Assembly (NCBI GenBank): GCA_045543505.1
Contig: JAZQMR010000037.1
Span: 1-36,635, forward strand
Length of the DNA stretch: 36,635 nucleotides
Reading direction: 5' to 3'
Origin: Acutalibacteraceae bacterium
GTDB taxonomy: Bacteria; Bacillota; Clostridia; Oscillospirales; Acutalibacteraceae
The position numbers and the translations under genes were made by a program. The notes under the pieces are model-generated. The model ran no database searches. It saw only the letters and a list, made by a program, of their open reading frames with translations, and was not told the DNA's origin. This document shows positions 4,771 through 36,555 of this stretch, in pieces (position 1 is the first letter of the stretch; the number at the start of each line of letters is the position of its first letter).

Positions 4771-4864
4771 GGGAGTGCCCTATAGAAACATTTATGATAT
4801 ACCATCTCTATGAAATGTAAAGCATGCTAACAACGATACGAATCATATTCAAAGAGCGCCTCCC
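4771..4864 (+). mobile_element. Internally deleted remnant of the IS1-family element seen intact at 35790-36555
   Basis: 4771-4827 (GGGAGTGCCCTATAGAAACATTTATGATATACC...ATGAAATGTAAAGCATG) matches the left end and first 6 codons of the element at 35792-35848. AGAGCGCCTCCC at 4853-4864 resembles the right end AGGGCACTCCC. The right boundary is uncertain. Confidence 0.55.
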
Positions 4865-6553: not shown

Positions 6554-6732
6554 GGGAGTAACCTAAGCGAGCATCTGGCGATCGCGAGGCGCCGAAGGCC
6601 AGTAGGGCCTTCGGCCAGCCCAGCGCTCAACAACGTTGAGTGCTGGGCCACAAAGAAAATATTATTTTCTTTGGCCTCGCGGCCTGGTTGCGGCAGCTAC
6701 CCAAATGAAAAAAGCTTACTTCGGTCATCCCC
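6554..6732 (+). mobile_element. MITE copy 1 (179 bp, IS1-type terminal inverted repeats, three-hairpin core)
   Basis: 5' end GGGAGTAACCTAAGCGAGCAT. Core CGCGAGGC / hairpin CCGAAGGCC..GGCCTTCGG / hairpin CCCAGCGCTCAAC..GTTGAGTGCTGGG / hairpin CAAAGAAAAT..ATTTTCTTTG / GCCTCGCG. Degenerate 3' repeat ...GCTTACTTCGGTCATCCCC. Flanks CTATTTGC and TTATTTGT match at 6 of 8. Aligns end to end with the copies at 14930 and 32936. Confidence 0.75.
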
Positions 6733-7410: not shown

Positions 7411-8805
7411 TTAGCCACCTTGAATGAAAAAGCGCTGCACAAAATCAATAAGGTCTTGCCCGGACAAGCCAAAGCGATTCATTGCCCACTCAAGCATATT
7501 TTTAAGGCGAGGGTTGTTAAAGTTCAAGTTGCGCTGTTGGACACTTGCTTCTTGCGGTTCAGTTGTGTTGGAATTGAAGATTTGCTCCAAACCACTTGCT
7601 GCTCGCTCTGATGCTCGGTTAAAGTTGTCCTCTTCAATTGCAAAATCAATAGTGTCAACACGTGTTTCACGCATAAGAAACTCGTCGCCGTTGCGTGCAC
7701 ACACGGGTACTCTTGGCGCTACAGTGAGGCTATTTGCTGCTTGGACTGTCACATCACGCGTAGGTCTATCCTCAGTAAAACCTGAAAACTCTATATCACC
7801 GCCATCAATAATGCCCGCGCCAGTACCATCGTGTGTAAAAAGATTGGAAGAGGTCGAGTAAACTGTAGAACGCTCGCCTGCGTTAATTCTATTCGCACCC
7901 TCAGCCGTTATGGCCCCATCGCCATACACCCGCGTGTTACCATTGCCATCCACCTGCGTGCGACCGTTACCGACCACCTGCGTGTCACCGTCGCCGCGCA
8001 CCAGCGTACCACCATTGCCATCCACCCGCGTGTTACCATTGCCATCCACCTGCGTGCGACCGTTACCGACCACCCGCGTGTCACCAGCGCCTACCACATA
8101 CGTGAAACCGGCCCCGTTCACTCGCGTGTCACCATTGCCATCCACCCGCGTGCGACCGTTGCCATTCACCTGCGTGAAACCGTCGCCGCGCACCAGCGTA
8201 CCACCAGTGCCATCCACATGTGTGTTACCGTTGCCATTCACCCGCGTGCAACCGTTGCCATCCACCTGCGTGAAACCGTCGCCGAACACCCGCGTGACAC
8301 CATTGCCATCCACCCGTGTGTTACCGTTGCCATTCACCCGCGTGCGACCGTTGCCATCCACCTGCGTGAAACCGTCGCCGCACACCAGCGTACTACCAGT
8401 GCCATCCACCTGCGTGAAACCGTCGCCGCACACCAGCGTACTACCAGTGCCATCCACCTGTGTGTCACCGTTTCCTTTCACCCGCGTGTGACCGTTGCCA
8501 TTCACCTGCGTGGCACCGTTGCCGCGCACCAGCGTATCACCAGCACCATCCACTTGCGTGAAACCGTTGCCAGTCACCGTAGTTTCACCATCACCATACA
8601 CTTGCGTGAAACCGTCGCCAATAACATATGTGTCGTCGTTGTCGATGATCATGCGATCAGGTTGCGCACTAACAGTATTCGTGTAACTGCCATAAATTTG
8701 ACTCGATAATCCTACTGCCGCCACCAGCCCCAGTGCAACCAGCTTTTTAGCTGCGCTGTTGCAGACTGACCATATGTCCTCGTGAATGAACTTGTTTTTT
8801 TGCAT
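7411..8805 (-). CDS. Secreted octapeptide-repeat protein (predicted beta-solenoid), 464 aa, unknown function
   Basis: ATG at 8805 is preceded by GGGGGA. Signal peptide KKLVALGLVAAVGLSS...VSA|QP. Then 30 uninterrupted 8-residue repeats G-x-G-x-T-x-V-x, followed by a non-repetitive C-terminal domain of about 160 aa. The ORF-track start at 8862 adds 19 aa with no RBS. Confidence 0.75.
   Translation of the reverse strand: MQKNKFIHEDIWSVCNSAAKKLVALGLVAAVGLSSQIYGSYTNTVSAQPDRMIIDNDDTYVIGDGFTQVYGDGETTVTGNGFTQVDGAGDTLVRGNGATQVNGNGHTRVKGNGDTQVDGTGSTLVCGDGFTQVDGTGSTLVCGDGFTQVDGNGRTRVNGNGNTRVDGNGVTRVFGDGFTQVDGNGCTRVNGNGNTHVDGTGGTLVRGDGFTQVNGNGRTRVDGNGDTRVNGAGFTYVVGAGDTRVVGNGRTQVDGNGNTRVDGNGGTLVRGDGDTQVVGNGRTQVDGNGNTRVYGDGAITAEGANRINAGERSTVYSTSSNLFTHDGTGAGIIDGGDIEFSGFTEDRPTRDVTVQAANSLTVAPRVPVCARNGDEFLMRETRVDTIDFAIEEDNFNRASERAASGLEQIFNSNTTEPQEASVQQRNLNFNNPRLKNMLEWAMNRFGLSGQDLIDFVQRFFIQGG
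7900..8619 (-). repeat. Coding tandem repeat: 30 in-phase 24-bp units with 48-bp and 96-bp higher-order copies
   Basis: 24-nt periodicity over 720 nt with no indels. Exact 48-bp x2 tandem at 8354-8401 / 8402-8449. 7927-7989 matches 8023-8085 at 62 of 63 positions (96-nt offset). Confidence 0.9.
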
Positions 8806-8930
8806 GTATGCATTCCCCCTTTTTTGTTTAGTTTCAATATCGATGATATCACAAATCAACATCTAAGTCAAGCGTATTTTAAATCTTATGGCAAATATAT
8901 TTACAAAAGAAGATACCTAAGCTCAAGCAA

Positions 8931-9689
8931 GGAGAGTGTTTTCTAAAATAATCAAATGTGATATAGTAGGAAGAAAAGGGCGGTATAGATATGTACAAGT
9001 GCAAAAAGTGCGAATCAAACGAATACGTAAAAGCTGGCTTTGTAAAGGGTGAGCAGCGATACAAATGCAAGAAATGTGGCTGCCGATTTGTGCCAACAAG
9101 ACATAAAGGTAGAAGCAAACAAGAAAAGATTTTGGCAGTGTGGATGTACGCGCACGGTTTTTCATTTAGAACCATCGCCAAGTTTTTTAAGGTCAACGTT
9201 CATTCGTCGTTCGTTTGTTTGAGTGAAAGCTTTTGTAAAAAACAACTATTCTAAACCGGCTCCAATTGACGATAGCGTAGTGATTGAGCTCGACGAAATG
9301 TGGCATTTTTTATATTCAAAAAAAGGCAAGTTTGGATTTGGAAAGCTTATTTCCAAACCACAAAACAGCTCATCGATTGGGAGTGCGGAGCTCGAGATTC
9401 TGAAACGTTTAGAAAAATGTACGAGCGATAAAAAAGTGGAACTTAAAAGTATTCTTTAGCGATCGATACAGTGTTTATCGTAATTTTATACCACCGGAAC
9501 ATCCGATTCAAACAAAATTCGAAACACATTTAATTGAAAGCGACAATTTTTCTCAACGACGCTGGTTTGCAAGATTTAGACGAAAAACCTGCTGTGTTTC
9601 CCGCTCCCTCGACATGATTAATTTGACCATATTTATGAGGCCGTTCATGTCAATAAGTCTATCAGCACAGTTATTTGAGCAACGCTTCC
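8931..9689 (+). mobile_element. IS1-family element (second lineage), full length but frameshifted and defective
   Basis: Left end GGAGAGTGTTTTCTAAAATAA; right end TTATTTGAGCAACGCTTCC (9671-9689) is its imperfect inverse. Zinc-finger InsA-like ORF (MYKCKKCES...YKCKKCGCRF), then DDE pieces VIELDEMWHF... and ...RRKTCCVSRSL in different frames. Confidence 0.7.
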
Positions 9690-9916
9690 TTCAACGGTGT
9701 AAGTCTGGCTTTTGTTTTTTAGCGAAGTATGAGTGCCTTCATAGCATGCTTCTGAGTACGCCGAATATGCGCCAGAGTAGAATTGACGAGCCTTCACGGA
9801 CCGCTCAACTAAATGCTGAATCCGCTCTCGACTTTTATCGAAGGCTATGTCGAAGCCTACGATTTTCTGTGTATCTCTGCTTACCAACGTTTTTGCTCAA
9901 TGTCGGCGCGATATAG
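9690..9916 (-). mobile_element. Internal fragment of the IS1-family element seen intact at 35790-36555
   Basis: Minus-strand translation VSRDTQKIVGFDIAFDKSRERIQHLVERSVKARQFYSGAYSAYSEACYEGTHTSLKNKSQTYTVEG parallels residues encoded at 36150-36350. The DNA is visibly similar, with scattered substitutions. It abuts the right end of the preceding IS. Confidence 0.7.
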
Positions 9917-14929: not shown

Positions 14930-15107
14930 CGGGAATGCCCCAAGTGAGCATTTTCCATTGGCTTAGCTGCCAACCTGAGCCGCGAGGCCAAAGAAAATAT
15001 TATTTTCTTTGTGGCCCAGCGCTCAATGTGTTGAGCGCTGGGCTGGCCGAAGACCCACAGGGCCTTCGGCTCCTCGCGGCCGCTAGATGCGCGATTAGGG
15101 CACTACC
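14930..15107 (-). mobile_element. MITE copy 2 (inverted relative to copy 1), with a perfect 8-bp target-site duplication
   Basis: Ends GGGAATGCCCCAAGTGAGCAT (14931-) and ...ATGCGCGATTAGGGCACTACC (-15107). The core has the same three hairpins as the other copies. GACTATTT occurs at 14922-14929 and again at 15108-15115. Confidence 0.85.
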
Positions 15108-17602: not shown

Positions 17603-19141
17603 ATGAGAACAAAAAATTCGATTATTAACACACTAGTGGGATTGGGTTCGTATGCGATTTTGCTGTTGGGACCGGTAGTTCTAAGCCCAATCGTAGCGAG
17701 CCTTGGCAGCGAAATTCTCGGCATACAAAAGACCTTTATGGATACGGTAGCGCTTTTGAATATAATCGAGCTGGGAATTAGCTTTGGCGTAATATACAAG
17801 CTGTACAAGCCGATTGCTGAGAATGACACCGAGAAAATCGCTATTCTGCTGAATTTTTACAAGAATACATTCAAAGTAATCGCTTCGATTTTATTGGCAT
17901 TGGGCTTATTGACGGCGATAATTATCCCGAAACTTGCACCTGCACACGACGCGAACAAATTTACTGATAGATGGCTCAGCGCGATGTTTTTGCTGTATTT
18001 GGCCGACACTTTGGCGACGTATCTGTTTGGCCACAAGCGCGCGATGCTGATTGCCGACCAGCGCAATTACCTGGTGAGTATTAGCAAAACCGGCTGCCAG
18101 CTGATGATGTTCATCTTGCAATTCGTTGCAGTGATGCACTTTCGGTCGTTCGAGTTGTATGTAATTGCGCGCTTGAGTTGCACCTTGCTCGACAGCATTT
18201 TGGTGCACACAATGTACAAAATTAGATATAAAAATATAGACCTACGGACGAAAAAAAAGCTCGAGAAAGGCGAGCGCGACGATTTATTTAGAAATTTGGG
18301 TGCGCTTTTCTACCACAAGATCGGCTACCAGAGCCTGGCATCGGGCTCGACGCTGATCATCACCAGCAACCTCGGCGAGGCGGTCACCGGCATGTACTAC
18401 CCGTACACGCTAATTACGAACGGCCTGATGAGCATCACCGACCAGGTTTTTAACGCGATTTTGACAAGTTTTGGCAACCTCCTCGTGAAGGCGACGCAAG
18501 GCCAAGTACATAACATTTACAAGAAAATTTTCTTCCTCAACCACGTAATTTACTCGTTTTTCTCGGTGTCGCTGTTCTGCCTCGTCGGGCCGTTCATCCG
18601 CCTGTGGATGGGCGACGCGTTCCTATTCCCGATGTCGACTCTGATTTTAATCGTGGTAAATTTCTACACATTCGGCATGAGAAAATCGATAACGATGGTA
18701 AAAAATAGCGCCGGACTTTATCGCCCAGACAGACATTTCGCGCTCATCGAGGCGGCCCTTAACATAGGTTTGGCGATGCTTTTAGTCGGAGACTTTGGCC
18801 TCAACGGTGTGCTTATCGCGAACATTATTAGCTCGCTGTGCATCCCCTTTTGGACCCAGCCCTACGTCGTTTACAAGAATGTTTTCAACCGATCCGTTGT
18901 TGACTATTACAAAAAGCACGCGATTTACGCCGCCATTACGCTGCTATCGACCGTTTTGACCTATTTTTTGTGTTCACTCTCAAGTGCAACTGGATTTATG
19001 AGGCTTATTTCAAACGGCCTGGTTTGCCTTGTTGTCCCGAACGCAATTAACGCGCTCATCTTCCGCAAGACCGACGAGTATCAGTACTTGCGCGGCATCG
19101 CGAGGAATGTATTTAAGCAGTTTAGGATGAGAAATAGTTAA
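17603..19141 (+). CDS. wzx: Polysaccharide flippase (MOP/Wzx family)
   Basis: 512 aa, about 12-14 TM segments; typical size and position for Wzx at the end of a Wzy-dependent locus. Confidence 0.75.
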   Translation: MRTKNSIINTLVGLGSYAILLLGPVVLSPIVASLGSEILGIQKTFMDTVALLNIIELGISFGVIYKLYKPIAENDTEKIAILLNFYKNTFKVIASILLALGLLTAIIIPKLAPAHDANKFTDRWLSAMFLLYLADTLATYLFGHKRAMLIADQRNYLVSISKTGCQLMMFILQFVAVMHFRSFELYVIARLSCTLLDSILVHTMYKIRYKNIDLRTKKKLEKGERDDLFRNLGALFYHKIGYQSLASGSTLIITSNLGEAVTGMYYPYTLITNGLMSITDQVFNAILTSFGNLLVKATQGQVHNIYKKIFFLNHVIYSFFSVSLFCLVGPFIRLWMGDAFLFPMSTLILIVVNFYTFGMRKSITMVKNSAGLYRPDRHFALIEAALNIGLAMLLVGDFGLNGVLIANIISSLCIPFWTQPYVVYKNVFNRSVVDYYKKHAIYAAITLLSTVLTYFLCSLSSATGFMRLISNGLVCLVVPNAINALIFRKTDEYQYLRGIARNVFKQFRMRNS

Positions 19142-19310
19142 AGATCAAGCCAGCTGGCGCCGCGAGGCGCAGAAGGCCCTACGGGCCTTCTGCCAACCCA
19201 GAGCGCAACTACGTTGGGCTCTGGGCTACAAAGAAAATAAAAATTTATTTTCTTTGTAGCCTCGCGGCCGCAGCTGGCTCAGCCAAAAGAAAGTTCTCCA
19301 TTAGGAGATT
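19132..19310 (+). mobile_element. MITE copy 3 (divergent subfamily; termini eroded, boundaries approximate)
   Basis: Same architecture as the other copies. Long outer stem GCCAGCTGGCGCCGCGAGGC / GCCTCGCGGCCGCAGCTGGC. Hairpins GCAGAAGGCCC..GGGCCTTCTGC, CCCAGAGCGCAAC..GTTGGGCTCTGGG and GCTACAAAGAAAATAAA..TTTATTTTCTTTGTAGC. Paired substitutions relative to copies 1, 2 and 4. Confidence 0.6.
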
Positions 19311-19313
19311 TAA

Positions 19314-19347
19314 GTGACAGCCAAGCCGGTTGTCACTTTGTTTTTTG
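19314..19347 (+). terminator. Intrinsic terminator ending the polysaccharide operon
   Basis: GTGACAGCC (19314-19322) / GGTTGTCAC (19328-19336) with one G.T pair, loop AAGCC, then TTTGTTTTTT. Confidence 0.7.
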
Positions 19348-20360: not shown

Positions 20361-20420
20361 GCGGGGAGTGTCTTGTTTTTTGAGCTTGGCTTGTGCGAAC
20401 CCGAGGCCAAAGAAAATAAA
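20361..20420 (-). mobile_element. Truncated MITE copy 5 (one terminus plus the start of the core)
   Basis: GCGGGGAGTGTCTTG...TTGGCTTGTGCGAACCCGAGGCCAAAGAAAATA parallels 14931-14998 of copy 2 and stops inside the A/T hairpin. Confidence 0.5.
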
Positions 20421-20637
20421 TTTCGAAGAAAATGACTTGTTTAAAGCGATAAAATACGAGGTTATGTTTTTAGCATCAAAGTTAAATCAATTCTGCCCCA
20501 TCATTTGCTACTCATTGACTTCAGCGCTTTCGACTGTTACTTCCGCAGTAAATTCAAGGGGAAGCCAAAATTTTTTTCCATCTGGTAATTTCAATGGTGC
20601 ACAGTATCAGTAAAATTTGGTGGATTAATTTAAAATC

Positions 20638-21345
20638 GCAATTGCTAAATTTTCATATATCCGATGCGATCTCTATGCATAAACAGCAGTAGAGAGTGTT
20701 TATGCATCTGCAAATTCTTTGAATAGCAGTAGGTTTTTCGGACAAACCTCGTAAGATAGTGGCGCAAAAGCCGGTTCATACGCTCAACGGTGGGCATATG
20801 CGCTTTTCCAGTGAGATGTTTTGTGGGGGCGATGAGATTGCATGCCAATGGTTCGATGTGTAAAAATTTGCATCAATATGGCTAATTTTATTCGCGAGTT
20901 TTTTGGAAGTGTTTTGTTTCTCGAGTGCCAACAAGCCGCTTTGTGTCGCGGTCTACTGATGTCCAGAGCCAGATGTTTTTTTAAATTTACGCACAACTCA
21001 TCGAGCTCCCAAAATATCGACTTTTTCGTCTTTTTTAGGAACTTTCTCTAATTCAACGCCGGCTTTTTTTACCCAGTTTATGACAGAAACATGGCTGACT
21101 TTAAGAATTCTTTCGATTCTCCTAAAGCCATTTCCTTCCAAATACAACTGTATTGCTTTTCGTCTGATATGCTCCAGGTAGCCGCGTTGTCCTACCGTGT
21201 AGTGACATCCACATTTTTTGCATAGATATCGCTGTTTTTGGTTGTTGAATCCGCTTTTTACTCGTTTTTCGCTCCCGCATTTCGGGCATTTAAGTTCTTT
21301 ATCCATACACTCATTTTAAACTATATATCGGTTTTTAGCAATGTC
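20638..21345 (-). mobile_element. IS1-family element (third lineage), both ends present, transposase frameshifted
   Basis: Ends GCAATTGCTAAATTTTCAT (20638-) and the reverse complement of TTAGCAATGTC (-21345). InsA-like ORF 20998-21306 (CPKCGSEKRV...YLCKKCGCHY plus HTH). DDE pieces (...DELCV..., ...VERMNRLLRHYLTRFVRKTYCYSK...) lie in other frames. Confidence 0.75.
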
Positions 21346-21559
21346 TTAAATTTTATTGACAACACTCGCTAATCGCCGAATTTCAAGCTGAATATTTGAT
21401 GGCCGACCGTGGTTATGACTATGATAAGCACCCCTATAAACTTCGTCATCTTGTTAAAAATGCATTTTTGCACCTTAAGAAATGGCGCGGTATAGCCGCT
21501 CGTTACGTAAAAATGTTGCATCTTTTGTCGCGTCAGTTCAAATTAGATGCATCGCTATA
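21346..21559 (+). mobile_element. Second, internally deleted copy of the IS5-family remnant
   Basis: Starts with the same TAAATTTTATTGACAAC...CGAATTTCAAGCTGAATATTTGATGGCCGACCGTGGTTATGAC as 9918-. It lacks the middle part and resumes at ...YKLRHLVKNAFLHLKKWRGIAARY. Confidence 0.65.
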
Positions 21560-22164
21560 TGTGTGAGCGAAAAACGAGTAAAAAGCAGATCCAAAAAACA
21601 AAAAACAGCGGTGTTTGGTAAAAATTGTGGTCAACTATACAGTGGGATAGCGCGGTTACCCGGAAAATATAATATGAAAAGCAATATAGTTGCATTTGGA
21701 AGGAAAGGGTTTTAGAAGAAATGAAAAAAGCTTAAAGTTAGCCACGCTTCTGTGACGAATCTGCCAAAAAGCGGACACGAAACCCACAAAAAGATCCCAA
21801 AAGACGAAAAAGTCGATGTTTTGGCGCTAGATGAGTTGTGTGTACATAAAAAACATCTGGCTCTGGACATCAGTAGACCGCGACACAAAGCGGCTTGTTG
21901 GATTTTACGTCGGAATTCAAGGAACAAAATTAGTCATATTGGCGCAAAGTTTTATGCATCAGACCATTGGCAGGCCTACAATCTCATCGCCCCCACAAAA
22001 CATCTCTCTGGAAAAGCACACACACCGTCGACTTATGAATAACTACCTCGCGAGATTTGCCCGAAAAAACTATTGCTATTCGAAGAGCCTGCAGATAATT
22101 AAGTGCTCTCTTTTGCTATTTATGCATAGGGATTTTATTGGATGCATGAAAACTTAGCAATGCC
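21560..22164 (+). mobile_element. 5'-truncated, heavily decayed copy of the IS at 20638-21345, in opposite orientation
   Basis: Starts at the equivalent of InsA codon ~10 (GAGCGAAAAACGAGTAAAAAGC). Shows the same DELCV...LALDISRPRHKAACW string as the other copy (out-of-frame reading of both) and ...YLARFARKNYCYSKSL. Right end GGATGCATGAAAACTTAGCAATGCC (-22164). Confidence 0.65.
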
Positions 22165-22185
22165 TTATTTTTAAATGTTATCAGC

Positions 22186-32935: not shown

Positions 32936-33114
32936 GGGAGTCCCCTAAGCGAGCATCTGGCAGCCGCGAGGCGCCGAATGCCCGCAGGGCCTTCGGCCAG
33001 CCCAGCGCTCAACTTTGTTGAGCGCTGGGCCACAAAGAAAATAATATTTTCTTTGGCCTCGCGGCCCGGCTGCAGCAGCTAATTCAAGTGGGAATGCTCA
33101 CTTAGGGCACTTCT
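32936..33114 (+). mobile_element. MITE copy 4, perfect 8-bp target duplication, inserted into the 3' end of the aminotransferase gene
   Basis: Ends GGGAGTCCCCTAAGCGAGCAT and ATGCTCACTTAGGGCACTTCT. The core is nearly identical to copy 1. AATTTTGC occurs at 32928-32935 and again at 33115-33122. Confidence 0.85.
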
Positions 33115-35789: not shown

Positions 35790-36555
35790 TAGGGAGTGCC
35801 CTATAGAAGCATTTGTGATATACTAGATTTATGAAATGTAAAGCATGTAATGACGAAACAAAACAAATAAAAACTGGAAAAACAAAGGCGGGAACCAAAA
35901 AGTACAAATGCAAAAAATGCGGAAAATATTACACCCAGGAAAGCAAAAAGAGAGGCCATAGCGAAGAAACAAAGAATCAGGCGATAAAATTATATTTGGA
36001 GGGAAATAGTAGCCGAGCAGTCGGCCGAATTCTGGGAATATGGAAAAATATTGAGCCCAAAGAGACTCTAAATGCGCGGGTTAACGTCATCTAAATGGAC
36101 GAGCTCTATAGTTTCGTCGAGAGAAAAAAAAGATTTTACGCGATAACGCTGGTCAGTAGAGATACACGGGAAATCGTAGGTTTTGACATAGCTTTCGACA
36201 AAAGTCGAGAGCGAATTCAGCGCTTAGTTGATCGTTACGTGAAGGCGTGTCAGTACTACTCTGACGCTTATTCGGCGTATTCAGAAGTGTGCTATGAAGG
36301 CGCTCATACTTCGCTAAAAAATAAAAGTCAAACTTACACCGTTGAAGGTGTAAACTTTGACTTGCGACACTACATTCCTTCTTTACGCCGAAAATCCAAA
36401 TGCTTTTTTCGATCACTTGAAACAGCTAAAGCTGTCTTCAAAATTTTTGTTAAAGCCTTCAATCTATTTGCTCGTGCTAAAAAGAATTTTCCTCACCTGA
36501 AATCTGCTTTTTGTCTCTCGAGTTTTATTTAAATGCTCAACCAGGGCACTCCCTA
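35790..36555 (+). mobile_element. IS1-family insertion sequence with both inverted repeats present
   Basis: TAGGGAGTGCCCT at 35790-35802 and its inverse AGGGCACTCCCTA at 36543-36555. 766 bp, coding for a zinc-finger/HTH domain plus an IS1-type DDE domain. No flanking target duplication. Confidence 0.85.
35831..36532 (+). pseudogene. IS1-family transposase interrupted by one in-frame TAA (36092-36094)
   Basis: ORFs 35831-36094 and 36095-36532 are in the same frame (both coordinates are 2 mod 3). ...NARVNVI*MDELYSF aligns with ...SVVIELDEMWHF of the IS at 8931, so the stop sits where a Glu codon (GAA) is expected. Confidence 0.75.

Follow-up and report, generated by a model that had tools for sequence, protein, structure and literature searches.

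The repeat at positions 19132-19310 of this contig raises the question of why a short piece of mobile DNA should carry a centre able to fold into a closed four-way junction, and whether that fold is kept as DNA, as RNA or for no function at all. The window, by which we mean the whole 36,635-bp stretch analysed, is a complete NCBI contig with the gene content of a spore-forming Firmicute, polysaccharide genes being present along with SpoVAC/AEB and SpoVT. The RluA-type protein that it encodes shares 95% identity with the counterpart in the metagenome-assembled genome (MAG) JAZQJR01 ('Acutalibacteraceae bacterium'); exact look-ups of the SpoVT and RluA proteins, with the limits set here, returned no record. 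An initial annotation had described the repeat as a MITE (a transposable element of miniature, inverted-repeat type) and had suggested that its structure is selected, either as a DNA cruciform or as an RNA element.

We report that the repeat is a MITE sharing its ends with an element of the insertion sequence (IS) family IS1, that its core has the predicted four-helix fold, that the pairing is maintained in place and that the pattern of change within the core is of a DNA type. Our best reading of the whole, to which we give a probability of about 0.5, is that of an IS1-mobilised MITE whose nest of palindromes would be kept paired by template switching together with selection among founder copies, the folded centre being a putative hinge. 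The window contains four full copies of the MITE, some of which retain terminal inverted repeats (TIRs), and one truncated copy:

6554-6732, plus strand: MITE copy 1 (core 6581-6684), between spoVAE-like and spoVT-like genes
14931-15107, minus strand: MITE copy 2 (core 14978-15080), which retains its two TIRs and is flanked by a perfect 8-bp target duplication, AAATAGTC
19135-19310, plus strand: MITE copy 3, the copy studied (176 bp, core 19159-19269), with both TIRs decayed, of the 'GATCAAGCC' arm subfamily
32936-33113, plus strand: MITE copy 4 (core 32963-33066), between two genes of a minus-strand polysaccharide operon
20364-20424, minus strand: truncated fifth copy, comprising a TIR, an arm, one outer-stem half and half of hairpin 3, upstream of an rluA-like gene

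All four full copies fold, on either strand, such that an outer stem, GCCGCGAGGC/GCCTCGCGGC, closes three adjacent hairpins (H1, H2 and H3) with 0-3 linker bases, as had been proposed. With RNA parameters the folding energies lie between -71 and -82 kcal/mol and the z-scores between -8.4 and -11.2, none of 200 shuffled sequences being as stable; with DNA parameters the whole MITE becomes a long imperfect hairpin, made of the arms and ends, with the four-way junction at its tip. The parts of the fold in copy 3 are the following:

19159-19168, plus strand: outer stem, 5' half, GCCGCGAGGC, pairing with 19259-19268
19169-19193, plus strand: hairpin 1, whose G+C-rich stem of 11 bp carries the triloop TAC
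19197-19225, plus strand: hairpin 2, 13 pairs including one G·G, with triloop TAC
19227-19258, plus strand: hairpin 3, a 14-bp A+T-rich stem
19259-19268, plus strand: outer stem, 3' half, GCCTCGCGGC, pairing with 19159-19168

The paired substitutions by which copy 3 had been said to differ from the others are all there, namely a C:G to A:T change in H1, a second in H2 and extra T:A and A:T pairs in H3, as are the two G·T pairs reported for copies 1 and 2. The boundaries given for the element, 19132-19310, lie no more than 3 nt from the insertion limits.

Representative genomes were scanned with a pattern of 7 fixed bases per outer-stem half and 10 fixed bases of H3. At least 75 loci were found, nearly all from the Acutalibacteraceae MAGs JAZQJR01 and JAZQHA01, and a profile search of those loci gave at least 107 full-length cores, no two of them alike, together with 19 partial cores, mostly at contig ends. 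The alignment on which the statistics below are based (A2) comprises 105 full-length cores of about 105 nt from the window and the two MAGs. Standard pairs fill 95.7% of its 5,019 pair cells, against 88.2% in column shuffles (none of 500 reaches the observed value) and 36-50% when each base is given a slid partner. Double changes occur at 27 of the 49 pairs, in 317 cells, as against 13.8 pairs and 68 cells in the shuffles, and the score for covariation is 0.196 compared with 0.062. RNAalifold, run independently, predicted all four of these helices; 21 of its 40 pairs carry compensated changes. The claim that the junction is kept by paired substitutions, made from a single divergent copy, thus holds across the family at a level far above both controls.

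The helices differ greatly in how much they vary. The outer stem is paired in 98.5% of cells; compensated changes are found at 11 of 12 pairs in H1 and at 12 of 15 in H2, where up to 4-5 pair types occur at one position. The lower stem of H2 is hypervariable yet paired (AGCCCAG/CTGGGC, ATACAAG/CTTGTA, AGTCCCA/TGGGAC, ACAGGAC/GTCCTG and GCAAGAT/ATCTTGC among others) and, like the loops, is close to saturation, while the outer stem, H1, H3 and the H2 apex (CAAC nnn GTTG) are almost invariant. Compensated variants of H3 (ACAACG/CGTTG, ACACCG/CGGTG and ACAAAT/ATTTG among them) come from copies recovered by the profile, not by the pattern. Since the H2 lower stem accepts arbitrary sequences, operators for a dimeric protein in each palindrome are ruled out as the cause of the covariation. 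A tRNA-like or riboswitch-like cloverleaf is likewise ruled out by arms of 10-15 bp, a junction almost devoid of unpaired bases and the lack of a model match.

Two mismatches recur in H2. An A·C at its base (A2 columns 48-83), which the other strand would read as G·T, is present in 69 of 105 copies, and a G·G near its apex (columns 59-72) in 19, so that the uncompensated G·G remarked upon in copy 3 is a recurrent state and not an oddity of that copy. The reverse-complement forms of these mismatches are rare (G·T 2, C·C 1), implying that flips of the whole hairpin are much rarer than flips of its loop.

The family has so far been seen in two Acutalibacteraceae species and their pig-gut relatives. 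Scans of JGI metagenomes and IMG/VR with GCCGCGAGGC N72-102 GCCTCGCGGC returned 130 loci, all of them chance or unrelated palindromes in G+C-rich DNA and none matched by the family profile; the pattern of this family found nothing in viral contigs. Many MAG contigs stop inside the MITE (L002, L015, L027, L036, L043, L050, L063 and L069, among others), so that the element fragments short-read assemblies, and near-identical young copies are probably missing from the sample.

The identity of the repeat as a MITE, which had been proposed at the outset, is evident from its ends and its insertion sites. Its TIRs are GGGAGTGCCCTAAG... and ...CTTAGGGCACTCCC, its arms fall into two subfamilies, and the sequence GGGAGTGCCC stands at the two termini of the MITE as well as at those of an IS1-family element elsewhere in the window:

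35792-36553, plus strand: IS1-family insertion sequence, 762 bp, bounded by the terminal repeats, GGGAGTGCCC, that the MITE has

Among the 23 copies with both TIRs the length has a median of 179 bp (range 150-204), and the target-site duplication (TSD) is perfect over 8 bp in 7 and matches at 7 of 8 positions in 2 more. Syntenic loci of the two species mostly hold the MITE in one and an empty site in the other; at locus L028, for instance, the site at which the window carries copy 2 is empty, and the site of copy 3 is empty in relatives at 86% protein identity. Elements of the IS1 family (ISfinder) have terminal repeats beginning GGnnnTG and duplicate 8-9 bp of target, and in both respects the MITE resembles them. 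Unlike them it has no open reading frame (ORF), the entire element being arms and folded core, and its centre is unrelated to the interior of the IS, in which the core profile finds no match. The match of the second ORF of the IS to PF03400 (DDE_Tnp_IS1) scores 27.5 bits, where the cut-off is 24.1, and further copies of the IS, 763-810 bp long, are found among the MAG loci, several of them looking degenerate. An IS1-family element is the likely source of the transposase for the MITE.

The transposase frame of the copy at 35792-36553 is itself broken by an in-frame TAA (36092-36094), and this copy is about 40 bp shorter than those in L058 and L060. A solo left end of an IS1-like element (GGGAGTGCCCTATAGAA... 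through the ORF start) lies at 4771-4826 and is 88% identical to 35792-35847.

If the fold is maintained, is it maintained as DNA or as RNA? A structure that acts in RNA would be expected to tolerate G·U on the transcribed strand and to avoid A·C, and the two G·T pairs of copies 1 and 2 had been read as a hint of such tolerance on the sense strand. Family-wide the hint disappears: with the two special positions excluded, 4,809 cells remain, in which 34 G·T, 35 A·C and 83 transversion mismatches are counted by element strand, and when copies between co-directional genes are read in the sense of the transcript the counts are 13 G·U and 18 A·C. Nor is there a bias of orientation with respect to the flanking genes (27 same, 19 opposite, p=0.30, from crude, ORF-based gene calls). 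The triloops occur in reverse-complement pairs of similar abundance: TTT 20/AAA 16, TTC 13/GAA 13 and AAC 10/GTT 9 in H2; GTA 18/TAC 16 and TGC 4/GCA 3 in H1; ATT 19/AAT 14 in H3. The probability that the six commonest H2 triloops would form three such pairs by chance is 6.6e-5, and the loop states of the three hairpins are mutually independent. A nearest-neighbour test of loop flips gave no discrimination, the loop types being few and all common. Rfam 15 gave no match in the window at gathering thresholds, in line with the statement that no known RNA family is recognisable, and at E<=10 only generic hairpin matches of 9-22 bits against thresholds of 37-130; no T run lies downstream of the fold. 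Taken together, the wobble symmetry, the absence of orientation bias, the interchangeable loops and the lack of an Rfam match or T run point to a signature of DNA type, and of the two options originally offered the cruciform fits better than the RNA element, given strict Watson-Crick pairing and reverse-complement loops.

Many of the H1 and H2 triloops in A2 have the form C-GNA-G (GTA, GCA or GAA) on one strand or the other. Loops of the type d(C-GNA-G) form exceptionally stable DNA mini-hairpins and would for that reason favour hairpin nucleation in single-stranded DNA on the strand that carries them.

It is against this evidence that a cis-acting role in RNA has to be set. On this view most copies would lie within transcription units or at their ends, where so stable a junction, whichever way round, would stop exonucleases, undergo processing or decouple adjacent genes, and host selection would keep the fold, as has been suggested for bcr1, ERIC, Correia and REP elements. 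The setting suits such a role. The copies take up most of the short intergenic spacers in which they lie (the core lies a median of 66 and 76 nt from the neighbouring ORFs), 46 of 74 are between co-directional genes, compared with 18 between convergent and 10 between divergent ones, and copy 4 is within an operon. The fold is very stable on both strands (about -75 to -82 kcal/mol) and persists in copies that are no longer mobile, and bcr1 of the Bacillus cereus group, a mobile repeat of about 155 bp that is transcribed, has a cruciform-like fold kept by compensatory changes (PMC3184786). The counts of G·U and A·C, the unbiased orientation and the loops that swap freely with their reverse complements nevertheless stand against it, as do the missing Rfam match and terminating T run, and we regard the RNA explanation as unlikely.

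That pairing is maintained in the individual copy, and not only among copies that spread, is seen in two ways. First, Watson-Crick pairs make up 97.0% of the core pairs in 45 copies without a recognisable TIR and 97.6% in 34 copies with both. Second, copies at the same site were recovered from relatives, and the changes in their stems were compared with the divergence outside the core. For copy 3 the limits of the insertion (about 19135-19310) were set by an empty or differently occupied site in relatives and by the orthologous copies; its left end supplies the final two codons and the stop codon (19139-19141) of a 512-aa gene. To its 3' side lies a hairpin that is found in relatives with the MITE and in relatives without it:

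19312-19346, plus strand: intrinsic-terminator-like hairpin (19312-19338) with T run, outside the MITE and predating its insertion

Three same-site comparisons were obtained:

Copy 3 and L216, with the same junctions: outside the core, divergence of 0.10-0.29 at four-fold sites and 11-20% in the arms; in the stems, 2 compensated and 3 single changes
Copy 3 and L082: divergence at four-fold sites of 0.36 (0.23-0.38 against L085); in the stems, 4 compensated changes and G·G to T:A, with 1 single change at the junction edge
L067 and L055, from the two species, with a shared decayed left arm: flanks about 75% identical; in the stems, 8 compensated changes and G·G to T:A, with no single change

Summed over the three, 14 compensated pair changes stand against 4 singles. 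Of the three singles between copy 3 and L216, two gave G·T and one changed A·C to G:C. Compensated doubles are too frequent to be independent neutral hits, and selection or a templated process must rapidly restore the pairing. The H1 loop has flipped in situ, reading TAC in copy 3 and L216 and GTA in L085 at the same site; loop inversions of this kind and multi-base compensated changes without intermediates are the footprints from which template switching may be deduced. Copy 3 is likely to be orthologous with L082 and L085, with the reservation that the same spacers have been struck more than once.

Four comparisons were set aside. The MITE of L028 sits across the terminator and is an independent insertion into the same spacer, not an orthologue of copy 3. 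Pair B (L072/L020) has opposite orientations and unrelated arms, and the arms of pair C, upstream of rluA, belong to different subfamilies; these two pairs were taken to be independent insertions. The comparison of L082 with L085 cannot serve to show purifying selection on the stems, since divergence over the entire spacer is only about 3%. The spacer upstream of rluA holds full copies of the MITE in L081, L082 and L028 and is empty in L076; both this spacer, with the truncated fifth copy, and the one that holds copy 3 have been struck by the MITE repeatedly.

Template switching within hairpins during replication is known to produce compensated multi-base changes and loop inversions in the absence of selection for RNA (PMC8794818), and the same data might be explained by a fold without function, the hairpins having been made by template switching, which keeps any palindrome perfect, and the design being a matter of common descent. 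The flip/flop loops and the strictly Watson-Crick compensation are the footprints expected of such a process (PMC8794818), the upkeep is independent of mobility, and between copy 3 and L216 the stems have changed at 7 of about 96 sites, similar to the arms and the four-fold sites. What this explanation does not account for is that the lower stem of H2 and the loops approach saturation in copies whose outer stem, H1, H3 and H2 apex scarcely vary. Nor does it predict that only 5 of 47 pairs differ between copy 3 and L082, against the 11-18 to be expected from the four-fold rate, or that the number of hairpins is constant across sequence-unrelated sets of elements (see below). The figure for copy 3 and L082 makes no more than a moderate case for a further constraint in situ at the level of sequence, and the way in which the copies were found confounds it in part. 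We consider a functionless fold improbable, to much the same degree as a role in RNA. Of the suggestion that structure is selected, then, one part stands, in that the pairing is maintained, even in immobile copies; the other is qualified by a Watson-Crick-only pattern and by flip/flop loops, which show that DNA-level events take place within the palindromes.

The constancy of the design emerged when 570 kb of sampled sequence was searched with a family covariance model and scanned blind for closed junctions. The blind scan found 124, and in 123 of these the hairpins number exactly three, with almost no linker; 104 are members of the present family, 11 of a second family, and 4 have unrelated outer stems. 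Copies of the second family have the outer stem of the first, CCGCGAGGC/GCCTCGCGG, around three unrelated hairpins with a hypervariable middle stem, and have IS1-like ends, GGAAGTGCC...; they are found at

L002:1445-1550
L014:1773-1866
L046:221-320
L057:1015-1122
and 7 further places.

Elements with unrelated outer stems, the last of which was recovered by the covariance-model search only and not by the blind scan, are at

L019:2464-2556
L021:911-1030
L026:4460-4589
L058:658-763
L038:4129-4225

Each of these five is single in the 570 kb and has three hairpins with 0-2 unpaired bases at the junction. The architecture thus outlasts sequence similarity, through either selection for the design or a long inertia of self-maintaining palindromes.

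Two further explanations arise here, in both of which a protein would read the fold. The closed four-way junction might be a functional module, resembling a Holliday junction as DNA or forming a compact RNA, that has a protein of its own to read it (HU, an enzyme that binds junctions or a partner of the transposase, for example) and is kept across sequence-unrelated repeat families of the Acutalibacteraceae after the transposon ends have died. This is doubtful, though were it true the junction would define a new class of structure-defined genomic element and not mere MITE filler. Alternatively, the element might have been exapted as a host DNA site of the REP/BIME type, bound by a nucleoid or topology protein (HU/Hbs, gyrase or a junction-binding enzyme) and selected by the host after its ends decay. 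The strand-symmetric, orientation-free signature, the conservation of stem sequences as the TIRs decay, and the high copy number in intergenic positions would all agree with this, and BIMEs do bind IHF, gyrase and Pol I (PMC3184786). The insertions are, however, mostly unshared between the two species, so that individual sites are dispensable; of all the explanations considered it is the least probable, below a role in RNA.

We return to the reading that we prefer, that of a mobile element with a fold of its own. The MITE is a non-autonomous transposon of about 179 bp that would have been mobilised in trans by an IS1-family transposase. Its centre of about 105 nt amounts to four nested DNA palindromes, three short back-to-back inverted repeats lying inside a fourth, from which either strand, as DNA or as RNA, can fold into the closed four-way junction. 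When an arm of a hairpin mutates, copying templated by the hairpin at replication would either revert the change or copy it to the other arm, and the same template-switch events would flip the loops. Founder copies that spread would retain the design and the particular stem sequences; the fixed design and the stem conservation, set beside the saturated H2 lower stem and loops, are what suggest selection among founder copies. The folded centre would then assist the DNA transactions of the MITE itself, its most plausible role being that of a fold-back hinge aligning two transposase-binding ends about 180 bp apart. A hinge akin to the bent centre of other MITEs appears to be the most economical role on which founder selection could act.

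Several points weigh against this reading. Cruciform extrusion from duplex DNA, with outer arms about 90 bp apart, is energetically demanding, and we know of no requirement for internal structure among IS1-type DDE transposases. If the fold serves transposition only, selection cannot explain its upkeep in dead-ended copies, for which the reading depends on template switching; and because template switching removes G·T whatever RNA tolerates, the missing wobble is a weaker argument against RNA than it might seem. The two singles that break Watson-Crick pairing between copy 3 and L216 are both G·T in the transcribed sense, as an RNA role would have it, numbers that are too few to be significant. 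Between copy 3 and L082, stems other than the H2 lower stem change 2-3 times more slowly than four-fold sites, which hints at sequence-level constraint in situ beyond what a hinge alone would need. Finally, the outer stem and half of H3 were fixed by the search pattern and covariation in them is under-sampled.

These results add an undescribed and very abundant family of IS1-derived MITEs from uncultured gut Clostridia, unusually regular in its outer stem and three hairpins. They also bear on the discovery of structured RNA, since covariation as strong as that found here would pass any structure test and yet can be produced by DNA palindromes; pipelines for RNA discovery should check wobble asymmetry, orientation and loop inversion before a structured RNA is called. 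With more than 100 paralogous hairpins and an orthologous series, the family offers a natural test of how template switching shapes and preserves bacterial hairpins. Should the fold prove to be a hinge or a site for a protein, the joining of the two ends in elements as short as these would have an explanation.

The window contains other repeated DNA. A dispersed repeat of about 750 bp at 8933-9690 has partial matches, at 80-84% identity, in at least 15 MAG loci, and next to it 9688-9896 forms a 209-nt inverted match with 36140-36348, the latter inside the IS1-like element; ORFs around 8933-9896 have no Pfam match. A composite IS-like region with nested inverted repeats at 20641-22179 recurs in many MAG loci and includes a perfect 54-nt inverted pair (20928-20981/21848-21901) and a small ORF with a weak match to an InsA-type zinc ribbon. 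Within a 483-aa ORF on the minus strand (7411-8862), which matches weakly the C-terminal trimerisation (beta-helix) domain of phage T4 gp5, about 35 tandem 24-nt (8-codon) repeats occupy 7820-8671.

Neither this MITE family nor any bacterial MITE that folds into a closed four-way junction was found described in literature searches, and the comparison with known systems is one of partial likenesses. In form alone an analogy can be drawn with the inverted terminal repeat of adeno-associated virus, a parvovirus, in which an outer stem surrounds small, linkerless, back-to-back palindromes that occur in two reverse-complement configurations at similar frequency. That structure, however, is a three-way, T-shaped terminus of a linear single-stranded DNA genome that flips as a unit by hairpin transfer, whereas the MITE is chromosomal and four-way and its loops flip independently.

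Among bacterial repeats, Correia, ERIC, BOX and REP are more distant analogues than bcr1. REP/BIME elements, mobilised by RAYT, are likewise G+C-rich extragenic palindromes of high copy number with covarying stems and proposed host roles in DNA or RNA; a REP is a single 20-40-nt hairpin with a GTAG/CGTC head and has neither TIR nor TSD, in contrast to the MITE of about 179 bp, with its four-helix core, IS1-type TIRs and 8-bp TSD. The BOX elements of Streptococcus pneumoniae are modular intergenic repeats of MITE-like origin whose outer modules pair around one or more internal hairpin modules; they differ in sequence and host and in their variable number of boxB modules, where the MITE is fixed at three hairpins. 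Correia elements of Neisseria and ERIC/IRU of the enterobacteria are, like the present element, short TIR-bounded MITEs; they occur in hundreds of copies and are often co-transcribed, and their folded RNA affects the fate of the transcript. In Correia, a central IHF site is thought to bend the element. In both, the TIRs pair into a single long hairpin, the duplications are TA or others, and processing at the RNA level is clear, whereas the centre of the MITE is a separate, closed module of three hairpins in which no RNA signature was seen.

The closest described element is bcr1, which is also an intergenic mobile repeat of a Firmicute, flanked by direct repeats, with a branched fold and a mobility that is lost with age (PMC3184786). 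Its closing stem holds two stem-loops, its duplications are of 5 bp and no IS has been assigned as its parent (PMC3184786). Judged by the published description of bcr1, the MITE is set apart by three hairpins, 8-bp duplications, ends of IS1 type and loops that flip and flop between reverse-complement states.

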